This document shows positions 1 to 4,683 of a stretch of 64,000 bases of DNA, piece after piece (within the stretch, counting starts at the first letter, position 1; every line of letters begins with the position of its first letter). The position numbers and the translations under genes are program-made. Origin of the DNA: Planctomycetota bacterium (GTDB lineage Bacteria; Planctomycetota; UBA8108; SXIK01); assembly GCA_965223265.1 (NCBI GenBank), contig OZ244999.1, positions 9,115,497 through 9,179,496 on the forward strand. The letters are read 5' to 3'. Below the pieces are notes generated by a model. It saw nothing but the letters and a program-made list of their open reading frames with translations, was not told the origin of the DNA and ran no database searches.

Positions 1-1705
1 GAGAGCGGATGTAGTCCTCCCGTTCGAGCTGTCTTTGGTATCCGGACCCACCCAGTTCGTGGAAGCGTAGGTCGATCTTCCAAGTGTTGAAGTAGAGTCT
101 GCGGAATTTTGCAAAGTCTCCGGCCTGCAGATTCCTCGACCGGATGAGGCGCCTCAGTTTTCGGCGCCGGGTGAATGGTGATCGATGGACAAGATCACCG
201 AGATCCCTCGCTCTCGCAGCCGCTTCGACGCCTGCCGACTGCAATAGTTTGCCCCAACTGAAGAAGTCCTTCCAGTTCGTTTCCGACAGCACTGCTTGGT
301 CGAGAACCGACTTCTTCGCCACCCAATCGAGTGAGTCAGCAAGGCTTTGCTGTTGATTCTCGAGTCTCTCGAGCGTCTCCTCCCACAGATCTATGATCTC
401 GCGGTGTCGGATGCGGCCCTGCGGTCGACCATCGAAAAAAGTCTTGACGCGTCTTAGGTAGGAACGCTGGAGATTCATTGCTGTTGACGTCTGACCGCTC
501 CGCAGACGAACCTCTTTCCACGGTCCACCGCGCGCGATTTCACGGAACGCCATGACGGGATTCTTCAAGCGAAGCTCAGCAAACGTCTCTCCTGCTTCGA
601 TCATCTCCAGGAGGAGAGCAGTAACGCCGACTTTCAGTAGATTCGGGATGTCGGAGAGGTTGGAATCGCCGATCGTGATGGAGAGTTTCTTTTGCTCATC
701 GAAGAGCGCCGCCGGCGAGTAGAGGAACCCTTTCAGGTCGAACATGGTCTTCGACCGCCCGAACATGATGATCTTCGCTACGCTTGACGTCAGCCGGCTG
801 CGTTGCGACAGCTCAAAGGTTTCACTCTGAAAATCGAGACGTCCGGCTCCCGTATAGATCTGTCGACTGACGAGAAATGACGTCAAGTCCTTGACGAAAG
901 GCCCAAAAGCGAGGCGGCTCAAGAGTAACGAATAGAGCTGCACTGGCGGATAGACGATGACCAGGAAGAAGAGCACAGGAATGGCACGAATCGACTCAGC
1001 AGTTCGCGTGCGACCGTCGCGAACCCAAAGATAAATGTGTTCTGCGGCGCGCCGCAGCGGCGGTAGTAGGCGCCCGATCACCAGCGTGGCGGCGCCGAAT
1101 AGGAGAACGCAAAGCAGCGTGAAAAACGTCGGAAAGAGAAGCAAAAGGAAGATCGGGGCCGCGAGAATGAGGTACCGCAAGGCCGACCGCGGTGCTCGAT
1201 GAGAGACGAGGTAGTTTTCGTGGCAGCCGAATCCGGTCCCAAAGCGATCGACGTTGTTCTTACCGAAGAACAGACGCCCCGGCCAACCGGCTTTCGTCAG
1301 CGCTTCGGCGGACTTGCGGCTGACGTCATCGAGGATTGTGTCGAACGCTTTGGAGTAGCAAACGACGTCCCACGGTGTTCGACACTCGGGTGTTGCTACT
1401 TCGAAGATCGGTGTGTCTTCCTGGCGACGCAGAAAGATTTCCAGGTGCACCTGGCCGCCGTTCTCGAGGAAATACCCGCCCTTCAGACCACTTGCAGGTG
1501 CCGATTTGCGTCCCTCCAAAAGGCTGCTGTAGAGAACCTTCTCGAGCAGCTCGAAGGGCGCTTGCCTCTGCGGCGTCGCATTCGCGTCTAAATCGTCCGG
1601 GACCTCCGAGCCGACCGCGGGTTCGTAGATGACCGCGACCTCCGTCTCCAACCCGAAAATCCCCCTGCGTTCGTCGCTGGCGGGAAGGGGTTCGCGAGGG
1701 GCCAT
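1..1705 (-). CDS. PafA/Dop-family Pup ligase-like protein with hydrophobic (TM) insertion; 3' end runs off the window
   Basis: Manual translation from ATG at 1705: GIFGLETE...YFLENGGQVHLE...FEVATPEC...KNNVDRFGTGFGCHENYLV...FLVSRQIYTGAG...IGDSN...LDWVAKK...IDLRFHEL, colinear with PafA/Dop motifs. Not in the ORF track because there is no stop inside the window. Confidence 0.9.
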   Translation of the reverse strand, partial: MAPREPLPASDERRGIFGLETEVAVIYEPAVGSEVPDDLDANATPQRQAPFELLEKVLYSSLLEGRKSAPASGLKGGYFLENGGQVHLEIFLRRQEDTPIFEVATPECRTPWDVVCYSKAFDTILDDVSRKSAEALTKAGWPGRLFFGKNNVDRFGTGFGCHENYLVSHRAPRSALRYLILAAPIFLLLLFPTFFTLLCVLLFGAATLVIGRLLPPLRRAAEHIYLWVRDGRTRTAESIRAIPVLFFLVIVYPPVQLYSLLLSRLAFGPFVKDLTSFLVSRQIYTGAGRLDFQSETFELSQRSRLTSSVAKIIMFGRSKTMFDLKGFLYSPAALFDEQKKLSITIGDSNLSDIPNLLKVGVTALLLEMIEAGETFAELRLKNPVMAFREIARGGPWKEVRLRSGQTSTAMNLQRSYLRRVKTFFDGRPQGRIRHREIIDLWEETLERLENQQQSLADSLDWVAKKSVLDQAVLSETNWKDFFSWGKLLQSAGVEAAARARDLGDLVHRSPFTRRRKLRRLIRSRNLQAGDFAKFRRLYFNTWKIDLRFHELGGSGYQRQLEREDYIRS

Positions 1706-1928
1706 TGGGTGCGCGCGTTCGAAGATCGTCCTGTTAGGTTCAGGAGCTCAGTCAGGAAGGCAGTCGCCGGGCGTCGTGCCTTCGAGAGGAAGTCGGAGGC
1801 CGCGACAGGTCCCGGTGCTCACGCGCCATGGGCACACGGGTAACCGCGAGCGATTCGCCGCGCCAGTCACGGCGTTCTCTCTTCACATGGCGACCCGGCT
1901 CCTCTGAGGAGCGCGAACTTGGCCTCAA

Positions 1929-2117
1929 TCACTCAGCGCCGCGTCCGACGTCATAAGCGTAGACGTATGCAGCGGAGTGTTGGTCTGCGTCGGCGAGCAT
2001 GGCGCGAATCAGATCACGTCGGGTGCGAACGCCACGGTCGATGACCGAAGCGGGAATTCCGACACTTTCCGCGGACTCTGTGTCCGCAGAACGAACATCC
2101 TCGACTCTGCCTGCCAT
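1929..2117 (-). CDS. Putative Pup-like small modifier protein (62 aa, C-terminus AAYVYAYDVGRGAE)
   Basis: ATG at 2117; Pup-like size, polar N-terminus and terminal Glu; tail resembles Pup AEDFVRAYVQKGG(E/Q); same strand, directly upstream of the PafA-like gene. Confidence 0.6.
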   Translation of the reverse strand: MAGRVEDVRSADTESAESVGIPASVIDRGVRTRRDLIRAMLADADQHSAAYVYAYDVGRGAE

Positions 2118-2485: not shown

Positions 2486-3355
2486 ATGCGAGAACGTTGT
2501 AGTGCCGTTGCCCGCGAGCTCCAGGACACCATCACCGAGGAGCTCGAGCGCCTCGATGGGAGCCGTTTTGAGGAGGACCTGTGGGATCGAAGCGGCGGCG
2601 GCGGCGGACGTACCCGCGTGCTGACGGGCGGCGGACTCTTCGAGCGCGCAGGCGTCAATTACTCGTCGGTGCACGGCGAGCTTTCGGACGAGTTCGCCCC
2701 CCAACTGGCCGGCTCCGGGAAGGAGTTCTTCGCCACCGGGATCTCTCTCGTCCTCCATCCGTCGAACCCTCAAGTCCCCACGGTGCATGCGAACTTTCGA
2801 TACATCGAGAGAGGCGACGCATGGTGGTTTGGGGGCGGCGCTGATCTCACGCCGTACGTCTTTTACGAGGAGGACCCTTGCCATTTCCACTCGACGTGGA
2901 AACAGGTCTGCGACCGCCACGACCCCGAACATTACCCGAGATTCAAGAAGTGGTGCGACGAGTACTTCTTTTTGCCACATCGCGGTGAGTCGCGCGGCGT
3001 CGGTGGAATTTTTTTCGACAACCTGACTGGAGACCGCGATCGGCTGTTCGAATTCTGGAGCGATGCCGGGAGCGCGTTCTTGGACTCTTACGTGCCCATC
3101 GTCGAGCGCCGGCGGCATCTGGAACACAATGAGTCGCAGCGGCGATATCAACTGCTCCGACGTGGCCGCTACGTCGAGTTTAATCTCATGTACGACCGTG
3201 GGACGATTTTCGGCCTCAAAACGCGAGGTCGGATCGAATCGATCCTAATGTCTCTGCCGCCTCTCGTCGCGTGGGAGTACGACGTGAAGTGGCCACCGGC
3301 TAGCGCTGAGGCGGAGCTTGAAGCCGTGCTGCGTGAGCCCCGCGACTGGGTGTAG
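2486..3355 (+). CDS. hemF: Oxygen-dependent coproporphyrinogen III oxidase
   Basis: Motifs FERAGVNYS, PTVHANFRY, WWFGGGADLTP, RGVGGIFFD, RRGRYVEFNLMYDRGTIFGL; GGAGG RBS upstream. Confidence 0.97.
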   Translation: MRERCSAVARELQDTITEELERLDGSRFEEDLWDRSGGGGGRTRVLTGGGLFERAGVNYSSVHGELSDEFAPQLAGSGKEFFATGISLVLHPSNPQVPTVHANFRYIERGDAWWFGGGADLTPYVFYEEDPCHFHSTWKQVCDRHDPEHYPRFKKWCDEYFFLPHRGESRGVGGIFFDNLTGDRDRLFEFWSDAGSAFLDSYVPIVERRRHLEHNESQRRYQLLRRGRYVEFNLMYDRGTIFGLKTRGRIESILMSLPPLVAWEYDVKWPPASAEAELEAVLREPRDWV

Positions 3356-3720: not shown

Positions 3721-4683
3721 ATGCGTTACCTATCGGGAATTCAACCCTCCGGCACCTTACACCTGGGCAACTATTTTGGCGCCATGCGCCAGCACGTAGC
3801 CCGCCAAGATGAGAACGAGTGCTTCTACTTCATCGCCGACTATCATTCCTTGACGACGGTGCGCGAGCCGGACGTCTTGCGGCAAAACGTCACTGATGCC
3901 GTACTCGACTACCTTGCGGTTGGACTCGATCCCGACAAGTCGGTGCTGTTTCGCCAGTCCGACGTACCGCAAGTGGTTGAGCTCATGTGGGTCCTCTCGA
4001 CGCTGACGTCCATGGGGCTCTTGGAGCGATGCCACAGCTACAAGGATAAGATCGCCAAAGGCATCGAGCCGAGCCACGGGCTCTTCTCGTACCCTGTGTT
4101 GATGGCGGCCGATATTCTCCTCTACGACGCCGAGCGTGTTCCCGTCGGCAAAGACCAAGTGCAGCATCTTGAAGTGACACGCGACATCGCCCAGCGATTC
4201 AATCACCTCTACGGTGAGACATTGGTGGTCCCCGAGGCGGAGGTCGAGAAGGAGACGGCGGCCGTGCCGGGGGTCGACGGCCAGAAGATGTCGAAGAGTT
4301 ACGGCAACACGATCGAGATGTTCACCAGCGAAAAGAAGCTGAAGAAATCGATCATGGCGATCAAAACCGACTCGAAAGGCGTTGACGAACCCAAAGATCC
4401 TGATGAGAGCACGATTTGCCAACTCTATCGGCTTGTGGCAAAGGACGAGGAGATGGCGGCGATGGAGGCTCGTTTTCGCGAGGGTGGCTATGGCTACGGA
4501 GATGCAAAGAAGGCCTTGCTGGCAAAGACACTCGACTACTTCGCGGACTATCGCGCCTCCCGGGAGAAGCTCGCTGCCGACCCAAACGTTGTCGCGGAGG
4601 TTCTGCGCGGCGGCGCTGCGAAGGCATGCAAGATGGCGACGCAGACTCTTGACCGCGTCTACCGGGCCGTCGGGCTGCGGTGA
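3721..4683 (+). CDS. trpS: Tryptophanyl-tRNA synthetase
   Basis: Starts MRYLSGIQPSGTLHLGNY (HIGH-type motif), YPVLMAADIL, VPVGKDQVQH, KMSKS; start placed at ATG 3721. Confidence 0.97.
   Translation: MRYLSGIQPSGTLHLGNYFGAMRQHVARQDENECFYFIADYHSLTTVREPDVLRQNVTDAVLDYLAVGLDPDKSVLFRQSDVPQVVELMWVLSTLTSMGLLERCHSYKDKIAKGIEPSHGLFSYPVLMAADILLYDAERVPVGKDQVQHLEVTRDIAQRFNHLYGETLVVPEAEVEKETAAVPGVDGQKMSKSYGNTIEMFTSEKKLKKSIMAIKTDSKGVDEPKDPDESTICQLYRLVAKDEEMAAMEARFREGGYGYGDAKKALLAKTLDYFADYRASREKLAADPNVVAEVLRGGAAKACKMATQTLDRVYRAVGLR

Follow-up and report, generated by a model that had tools for sequence, protein, structure and literature searches.

The terminal 64 kb of the single 9,179,496-base contig of a Planctomycetota bacterium (OZ244999.1, assembly GCA_965223265.1), a stretch of 64,000 nucleotides (nt) referred to here as the window, opens with two minus-strand genes. 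One encodes a PafA/Dop-family enzyme with a long hydrophobic insert, called the ligase here after its Pfam family (Pup_ligase), and the other an unnamed 62-amino-acid (aa) protein that resembles the modifier Pup. Together they probably form a membrane-anchored, proteasome-independent Pup-like conjugation module. An earlier annotation made from the sequence alone (the first-pass annotation) had suggested a membrane-anchored, possibly proteasome-independent tagging system, and the insert, the conserved gene pair, and the absence of partner genes described below support that suggestion. It had overlooked the 62-aa open reading frame (ORF) upstream of the ligase; with this adjacent gene, what had been read as a ligase homologue becomes a candidate two-gene tagging module. 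The features of the locus, in window positions, are as follows.

1-1705, minus strand: Pup_ligase (PafA/Dop-family) gene (ORF, PF03136 match, and fold match)
86-274, minus strand: second insert specific to the family, at about aa 478-540 of the C-terminal domain, predicted to be helical (alignment; modelled helices 478-547)
680-733, minus strand: remodelled phosphate-site region with Lys325 (731-733) and Ser342 (680-682), placed by alignments
905-1189, minus strand: hydrophobic insert, aa 173-267, with two long hydrophobic helices and a short basic helix (hydropathy, AlphaFold2)
1439-1441, minus strand: Glu89 at the catalytic-Asp position (Dop D94, C. glutamicum PafA D64), VHLE standing for LYLD (alignment to 4B0R)
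1640-1654, minus strand: G-L-E-T-E, aa 18-22, the GhExE ATP-binding motif of carboxylate-amine ligases, invariant in alignments
1706-1928, minus strand: 223-nt spacer between the modifier and ligase genes (sequence)
1929-2117, minus strand: unnamed 62-aa Pup-like modifier gene, stop codon 1929-1931 (conserved in close and phylum-sample loci; docking)

A PafA/Dop homologue cut by the window edge

The first-pass annotation assigned a PafA/Dop homologue to positions 1 to 1705. The gene is real, but it is a minus-strand gene of which the window contains only part: residues 1-568 of 634 fall inside (1705 down to 2), the frame is open at the left edge, and the remaining 66 codons with the stop are outside, so that the full-length gene occupies contig positions 9115297-9117201 (G000:C1:9115297-9117201). 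The public call for this protein (P0002) is 616 aa long and apparently starts at an internal TTG, codon 19 (window 1652-1654). We prefer the ATG at window 1705, since starting at the TTG would cost the invariant G-h-E-x-E strand its Gly18.

Family membership is clear from both sequence and predicted structure. The protein matches Pfam PF03136 (Pup_ligase) with an E value of 2.2e-67 and 228.4 bits against a cut-off of 25. An AlphaFold2 model built from 22 family sequences (predicted local distance difference test [pLDDT] 88.3, predicted template modelling score [pTM] 0.89) has as its first Foldseek matches 4BJR, the PafA-Pup structure (E 2.1e-24, target TM score 0.74), and 4B0R, a Dop structure (E 4.4e-24, target TM score 0.79), with GCS2/YbdK as the next family at 1e-3. 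Both the glutamine-synthetase-like cradle and the C-terminal helical domain of the family are present in this comparison (about 635 alignment columns matched), and the original family assignment thus stands.

A conserved small gene upstream of the ligase

The 62-aa protein has a variable N-terminal half and ends ...YVYAYDVGRGAE. The conserved tail of its family reads L..iL.DA.....YV..Y..GRGAE, with Glu last, and Asp43, Ala44, Tyr51, Gly60, and the terminal Glu62 are invariant. Conservation of the gene pair was examined in a close set consisting of this genome and 9 planctomycete loci (L003-L011) taken from 49 loci found by translated search, the other 40 of which were canonical or distant and were left unscreened for the ORF. 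All 10 close loci have a same-strand ORF of 61-73 aa that ends G-x-G-[AG]-E and lies 7-321 nt upstream of the ligase match. BLAST clustering of ORFs of at least 90 aa from these loci, a limit that leaves out the 62-aa ORF, returned only the ligase as common to all, and the ligase and the small ORF are the sole genes that all 10 have in common. A profile of the small family matches 12 clusters among 5.8 billion proteins. All 12 are unnamed or listed as 'hypothetical protein [Planctomycetes bacterium]', none contains a Pfam domain, and one (P0272) is the 62-aa form on this contig. The 223-nt spacer that separates the two genes yielded no minus-strand terminator-like or promoter signal in scans and no Rfam family.

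The pairing extends beyond close relatives. Among 29 loci besides our own in a sample of the phylum, screened by hidden Markov model (HMM) searches and by ORF tail, 24 have a G-x-E-terminated ORF on the ligase strand that lies upstream of the ligase gene or overlaps it, in most cases with the tail ...VPGGGE or ...GGGE; one is ambiguous (L067), three have no such ORF (L059, L065, and L066), and one has no upstream DNA (L071). Two phylum-sample loci, L056 and L057, duplicate the close loci L006 and L011. The G-x-E tail pattern occurred downstream of the ligase in none of the 13 loci screened on both sides. Every small protein examined ends in Glu (34 of 34), and each of the 6 canonical Pups that were fetched ends in GGQ. 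The close family has Gly at the -3 position (G-A-E tail), and distant carriers end in GGE (...VPGGGE).

Docking of the 62-aa protein on the ligase gave ipSAE values of 0.84, 0.86, and 0.84 versus 0.00 for the best control, with a partner pLDDT of 58-64 and at least 60% contact agreement among runs. Of 157 solved complexes, 116 pass the mark used, as do 2 of 215 mismatched pairs; these rates apply only roughly here owing to our own alignments. Residues 31-61 of the small protein are placed on ligase residues 24-28, 97-100, 148-159, 466-471, 493-497, and 536-565, so that the predicted interface takes in the strand 24-28, the loop 97-100, and C-terminal helices that include the family-specific insert (493-497 and 536-547).

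These results bear on the idea that the enzyme is a GCS2-related, membrane-bound gamma-glutamyl-amine or small-molecule ligase and the small protein a regulator or an unrelated neighbour. GCS2/YbdK is indeed the next structural neighbour, and no significant sequence similarity connects the small protein with Pup. Nevertheless, adjacency, strand, position, and the terminal G-x-E are kept as far as relatives with ligase matches of E 1e-59 to 1e-61, the docking puts the conserved tail on the catalytic sheet, and the C-terminal Pup-binding domain of PafA and Dop is retained over the roughly 635 columns of the fold match. We therefore think it quite unlikely that the enzyme acts on small molecules in this way.

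One subclade differs in its tail. In loci L069, L070, L072-L074, L078, L081, and L084, mostly of family f26 and with Gln at ligase position 162, the upstream ORF ends in ...GGGE and is otherwise unlike both the GRGAE and VPGGGE types. The ORF reading chosen for L070, L073, and L084 has a hydrophobic, Ala/Leu-rich N terminus, and start codons are uncertain in this high-GC DNA.

Two inserts in the ligase

The motif GCHENYLV occupies ligase aa 160-167 and FLVSRQIYTGAG occupies aa 277-288. The Kyte-Doolittle profile (19-residue window) rises to the threshold of 1.6 in just two places: aa 173-217, with a maximum of 2.77, and aa 239-263, where two overlapping stretches peak at 2.08. An insert of about 90 aa had been noticed after GCHENYLV at 925-1185; its hydrophobic stretches span about 905-1189, and both the hydropathy maxima and the modelled helices (aa 174-213, 215-230, and 234-265) agree with its description as a hydrophobic, potentially membrane-inserted element. 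It begins about 8 residues past CHENY and stops shortly before Arg281, with both feet on strands of the catalytic cradle. Since both flanks belong to one cytoplasmic domain, the chain should make an even number of membrane passes or form re-entrant hairpins. Within the 22 family members, Pro184 is present in 22, Pro192 in 21, and Pro253 in 18, Pro192 and Pro253 sitting at the midpoints of the two hydrophobic stretches, and Lys plus Arg outnumber Asp plus Glu in the connecting segment 213-240 (median 6 versus 2). An arrangement as two hairpins with this segment in the cytoplasm agrees with its basic character and with the mid-helix prolines; it would equal the four transmembrane (TM) segments described by Iyer and colleagues (see below), whereas AlphaFold2 draws the insert as two continuous helices. 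The model and the hydropathy profile together suggest that the insert serves as a membrane anchor, which may have two passes, four passes, or a re-entrant arrangement.

To place this insert within the wider family, 258 homologues of at least 400 aa were aligned to one HMM; they derive from two overlapping databases, include P0002, and are biased towards the query. Forms counted as insert-bearing have an insert of at least 70 aa with a Kyte-Doolittle value of at least 1.6. The distance from CHENY to the conserved Arg of SRQ is 82-167 residues in insert-bearing forms and 19-60 in insert-less homologues.

The second, C-terminal insert contributes to the predicted groove for the small protein (contacts 493, 496-497, 536, and 539-547). 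Some forms that lack the membrane insert have a C-terminal insert of about 78 aa, and in some that possess the membrane insert it measures just 13 aa. Four architectures exist among long PafA/Dop homologues, with or without the TM insert and with or without the C-terminal insert of about 78 aa. Eight homologues of 550-590 aa (P0065-P0067, P0150, P0152, P0173, P0181, and P0223) lack the membrane insert, retain the catalytic Asp and Arg, and have the helical C-terminal insert of about 78 aa in common with the membrane forms.

A retained nucleotide site and altered catalytic positions

The GhExE motif is named in section 6 of Hecht et al. 2020 (PMC7947786). The ligase has G18, E20, E22, E102, E107, H162, E163, R281, R302, and D347. 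Nearly all of the 175 insert-bearing and 81 insert-less forms share E20, E22, E102, E107, E163, R281, and D347; E20 and E22 are retained in 164 and 165 of the 175, respectively, and in 74 of the 81. To judge from these alignments the presumed ATP and metal ligands are retained. The first-pass annotation had allowed for a pseudo-enzyme lacking a usable ATP/Glu site; the GhExE Glu pair and the family-invariant residues are kept, which argues for a usable one.

Elsewhere the site has changed. The two substitutions read earlier from the raw sequence, LYLD to VHLE (aa 86-89) and RLHVIVGDSN to KLSITIGDSN (aa 340-349), are both present and are borne out in family alignments. In the numbering of A. 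cellulolyticus Dop, taken from the PDB sequence alignment, Dop Arg227 (NTRDEP) corresponds to Lys325 inside the invariant D-L-K-G, as placed by MAFFT and hmmalign alignments and not by coordinates, and Dop His241 (RRLHV) corresponds by alignment to Ser342 in K-L-S-I. K319, T320, D323, and K325 are invariant in the close-family alignment. Roles for Dop D94 (catalytic), R227, and H241 are given by Cui et al. 2021 (PMC8599861). The insert and both motif changes recur at equal alignment positions in about 60 clusters (43-55% identity), and the insert is found in 175 of the 258 homologues; given this recurrence, none of the three is due to chance.

A pseudo-enzyme, that is, a membrane scaffold without catalysis, would be consistent with the change of all three Dop-active positions D94, R227, and H241 (to E, K, and S). 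We consider it highly improbable, since the family has fixed these replacements, which are conservative, every other cradle residue is kept, and a small protein with a reactive terminal Glu is co-conserved. Moreover, the invariance of E89 and K325 within the close family indicates purifying selection and not decay. The enzyme thus looks catalytically competent; the reaction that it performs is not readable from its sequence.

The change at the catalytic-Asp position coincides with the membrane insert. Insert-bearing forms (n=175) have Glu there in 171 cases, Asp in 0, a gap in 3, and Gly in 1, and insert-less forms (n=81) have Asp in 76, Glu in 0, and a gap in 5. The remaining two forms, with a long non-hydrophobic insert, both have Glu at this position and Gln in one case and His in the other at the His position. 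At the position of His241, insert-bearing forms have Gln (77), Thr (45), His (28), or Ser (13), and insert-less forms His in 77 of 81. Comparison of the four architectures shows that the Asp-to-Glu change tracks the TM insert only and not the C-terminal insert.

Such coupling raises the question of whether the acceptor itself differs. The small protein might be conjugated to a non-protein amine at the membrane, such as phosphatidylethanolamine (PE), an ornithine lipid, or a cell-wall precursor, in the manner of Atg8-PE lipidation. A difference in acceptor would then account for the strict Asp-to-Glu change (171 of 175 with the insert, 0 of 81 without), which goes with the membrane insert rather than the C-terminal one. 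Active-site strands directly flank the insert, E163 lying about 11 residues before helix 174-213 and R281 after the insert, so the cradle must sit near the bilayer; the neighbourhood also holds no conserved gene for a protein partner or reader. Still, all characterised family members modify protein lysines, as described in PMC2588565, PMC8599861, and PMC7947786, and Glu and Asp are both general bases, so that specificity need not change with the substitution. A non-protein acceptor is in our view rather unlikely.

Absence of proteasome partners from the genome

The genome, a single contig of 9.18 Mb, contains one Pup_ligase gene. The observation that the window holds no proteasome or ARC gene extends to the whole genome: PF00227, which models the 20S proteasome and also detects HslV in control genomes, has 0 matches, and the best genome score against the Mpa/ARC model TIGR03689 is 146.6 against a cut-off of 504.75 bits, from the AAA core only. 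No genome match to the Pup model PF05639 was obtained at E<=1. The small proteins end in Glu and would therefore be ready for ligation, with a deamidase unnecessary, and Glu-only tags fit the absence of Dop.

Proposed mechanism and competing evidence

We infer ligase rather than hydrolase activity, a membrane-associated acceptor, and the following sequence of events. The insert of about 95 residues would tether the catalytic beta-sheet cradle to the inner membrane on its cytoplasmic side. The C-terminal half of the tag would fold into the ligase groove, after which the gamma-carboxylate of its terminal Glu would be phosphorylated by ATP. The resulting acyl phosphate would then be attacked by an amine, most likely the Lys of a membrane or membrane-proximal protein, with Glu89 instead of the usual Asp deprotonating the attacking amine. 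Since the genome has no 20S proteasome, HslV, or Mpa, the outcome would be regulatory or would consist of handing the target over to a non-proteasomal machine.

Alternatively, the enzyme may be a Dop-like hydrolase (depupylase or deamidase) or may be bifunctional. A PDB sequence search with the ligase returned Dop chains first (1.6e-39) and PafA second (7.4e-34), the alignments falling into two blocks with the insert left out; Hecht et al. (PMC7947786) note a partial alignment of the planctomycete proteins to the Dop loop, and the two activities are inseparable by sequence. The NCBIfam models give the opposite order, with the PafA score (183.5) slightly above the Dop score (166.5). A lone depupylase would, moreover, have nothing to reverse in a genome with one family member, and with 34 of 34 adjacent tags ending in Glu and none in Gln there would be nothing to deamidate. 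A hydrolytic role is therefore very unlikely in our estimation.

Several results weigh against a Pup-like conjugation module. For the enzyme, both scores just given are far under the equivalog thresholds, 551.3 bits for PafA (TIGR03686) and 492.3 bits for Dop (TIGR03688). Ligase and hydrolase are distinguished by the alpha-loop and the residues flanking the catalytic Asp, according to Hecht et al. 2020 (PMC7947786), and in this family both regions are unlike those of PafA and of Dop; with the regions that decide different from both, and with the catalytic Asp replaced by Glu and Dop His241 by Ser, the sequence cannot say that the enzyme ligates. For the small protein, none of 24 family members matched Pfam Pup (PF05639) at E<=10, no NCBIfam family fitted, and the family profile found no Pup chain in the PDB. 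An hhalign comparison with 6 canonical Pups did align end to end, pairing YV with FV and the Gly/Glu tail with GGQ, but weakly (probability 15.5%, E 0.0017). The small protein is thus a Pup by architecture and context, whereas by sequence statistics this is not demonstrated. The docking is affected as well: PafA-Pup and Dop-Pup complexes have been solved, so the pass may reflect likeness to them, and it indicates a Pup-like binding mode in the model and is not independent evidence of binding. Marker-gene completeness of the genome is 91.65% even though it is a single contig. Other carrier genomes have a single HslV-sized PF00227 match in 17 of 29 cases, and 2 of these 17 also have a second, weaker match. 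Finally, the linked membrane-protein gene of the type described by Iyer et al. has no counterpart here, no third gene being conserved across the 10 close loci.

We consider conjugation of the small protein by a membrane-anchored ligase, independently of a proteasome, to be the probable function of the gene pair in spite of these points. A broader proposal, which we advance as rather doubtful, is that the clade with the membrane insert forms a third branch of PafA/Dop with a function of its own, in which the fixed Glu base and remodelled phosphate site would suit an acceptor at the bilayer surface (the amine of a lipid or envelope precursor, as a bacterial counterpart of Atg8-PE lipidation, or specific lysines of integral membrane proteins) and the tag would be a membrane-bound signal instead of a degradation mark.

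Relation to known systems

The closest precedent is the class described by Iyer, Burroughs and Aravind in 2008 (Biol Direct 3:45, PMC2588565), who reported Pup and PafA homologues unlinked to proteasome genes in Rhodopirellula and Plesiocystis and predicted in silico, for Rhodopirellula baltica and Plesiocystis pacifica, anchoring at the cytoplasmic face and modification of membrane-associated proteins. The membrane-inserted homologues in planctomycetes and deltaproteobacteria that the first-pass annotation mentioned are these. Our system shares with them a TM insertion right after the CHENY-bearing core strand (strand 4 in PMC2588565), an adjacent unannotated small gene with a terminal G[EQ], and the lack of linkage to proteasome genes. 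It differs in that the Iyer class has 4 TM segments where we find two long hydrophobic helices with a mid-helix proline and a basic connector, and in that linkage to a membrane-protein gene, as described in PMC2588565, is not conserved in this clade. The breadth of the membrane form outside Planctomycetota is that given by Iyer et al. Cavalier-Smith 2010 restates the observation, and Hecht et al. 2020 (PMC7947786) used single-copy planctomycete homologues (29-31% identity) only as an outgroup.

PafA (C. glutamicum, 4BJR) and the ligase belong to the same Pfam family and share the fold, GhExE, the other cradle residues, and a small partner with a terminal Glu in the same groove, the last predicted here by docking. 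In contrast to PafA, the ligase is at most about 30% identical to canonical forms and falls below the equivalog cut-off, it has the membrane insert and a C-terminal insert of 60-80 aa, it has Asp replaced by Glu, the NTRDEP Arg by Lys, and the RLHV His by Ser, and its genome is without Dop, Mpa, and 20S. Dop (A. cellulolyticus, 4B0R and 7OXY) is the best PDB sequence match and an equal fold match; the differences from PafA apply to it too, and here there is neither a Gln-terminated tag nor the product of a second family member to reverse.

The small proteins resemble Pup (PF05639) in their size of 45-93 aa, variable N-terminal half, and position beside the ligase gene, as well as in a conserved C-terminal helical region that has an aromatic residue paired with Val some 10 residues before the C terminus, and after it Gly and a final Glu/Gln. 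They differ in a G-R-G-A-E tail (close family) versus G-G-[QE], and in the absence of an HMM match among the 24 members. UBact, a Pup-like tag from outside Actinobacteria that Lehmann and colleagues described in 2017, reportedly occurs in some Planctomycetes too, and its loci are said to include Mpa, Dop, PafA, and proteasome genes. None of these companions accompanies the module here.

A term search of a 2021 pupylation review (PMC8223512) gave no occurrence of Planctomycetes, Nitrospirae, Verrucomicrobia, or 'membrane'. A literature search found no bench study of the membrane form; most subscription-journal papers were outside its reach, and one could have been missed.

Almost all that is understood of pupylation concerns delivery to the actinobacterial proteasome. 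A two-gene version that is widespread and lacks proteasome, Mpa, and Dop would be a natural experiment on what a Pup-like tag does alone, and the strict coupling of insert and Asp-to-Glu change gives a simple, testable structure-function question. A minimal module of this kind could also serve membrane-restricted proximity tagging. The idea of a membrane-inserted, proteasome-unlinked Pup ligase is not new, having been predicted in 2008 (PMC2588565). What is added here is the two-gene minimal module, a GRGAE-type tag family undetected by the Pup model, and the exclusive occurrence of Glu-terminated tags, together with the coupling of the insert to Glu at the base position, the Arg227 and His241 changes, the four architectures, a confident model, and a docking pass.

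Neighbourhood and distribution

Divergent from the module and upstream of it are a coproporphyrinogen III oxidase gene (window 2486-3355, plus strand) and trpS (about 3730-4683, plus strand). The same two genes lie upstream in 5 of the 10 close loci, which we read as lineage synteny and not as functional linkage. The downstream side of the ligase holds an HD-domain gene and a sodium:solute symporter gene, the latter encoded on the opposite strand. Polytopic membrane proteins are encoded within 3 kb in 4 of the 9 loci with downstream DNA and are mutually unrelated.

A ligase match with E<=1e-20 was present in 39 of 401 sampled Planctomycetota genomes, including 11 of 11 in family f26. The PF00227 matches of carriers lie away from the ligase contig or locus, with HslV and 20S not separated by this model, and families f1 and f92 have none.

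Five of the 39 genomes (G053, G063, G088, G133, and G192) have two adjacent, weaker Pup_ligase matches on one contig, resembling a PafA and Dop pair, and 0 or 1 PF00227 match each. We have assumed these to be canonical PafA- and Dop-like; they may be a different proteasome-poor variant or incomplete bins. Another genome, G092, has two full-length membrane-type ligase genes on different contigs (C583:2739-4652 and C337:4107-5999), and with contamination estimated at 8%, a mixed bin may explain the two copies instead of a duplication. Actinomyces loci with a tblastn span of about 2.5 kb were considered as large-insertion forms and rejected: they are ordinary Dop-like proteins (YVD, NTRDEP, RRLH, and a 20-residue gap from CHENY to TRQ), and the span probably covers adjacent paralogues.

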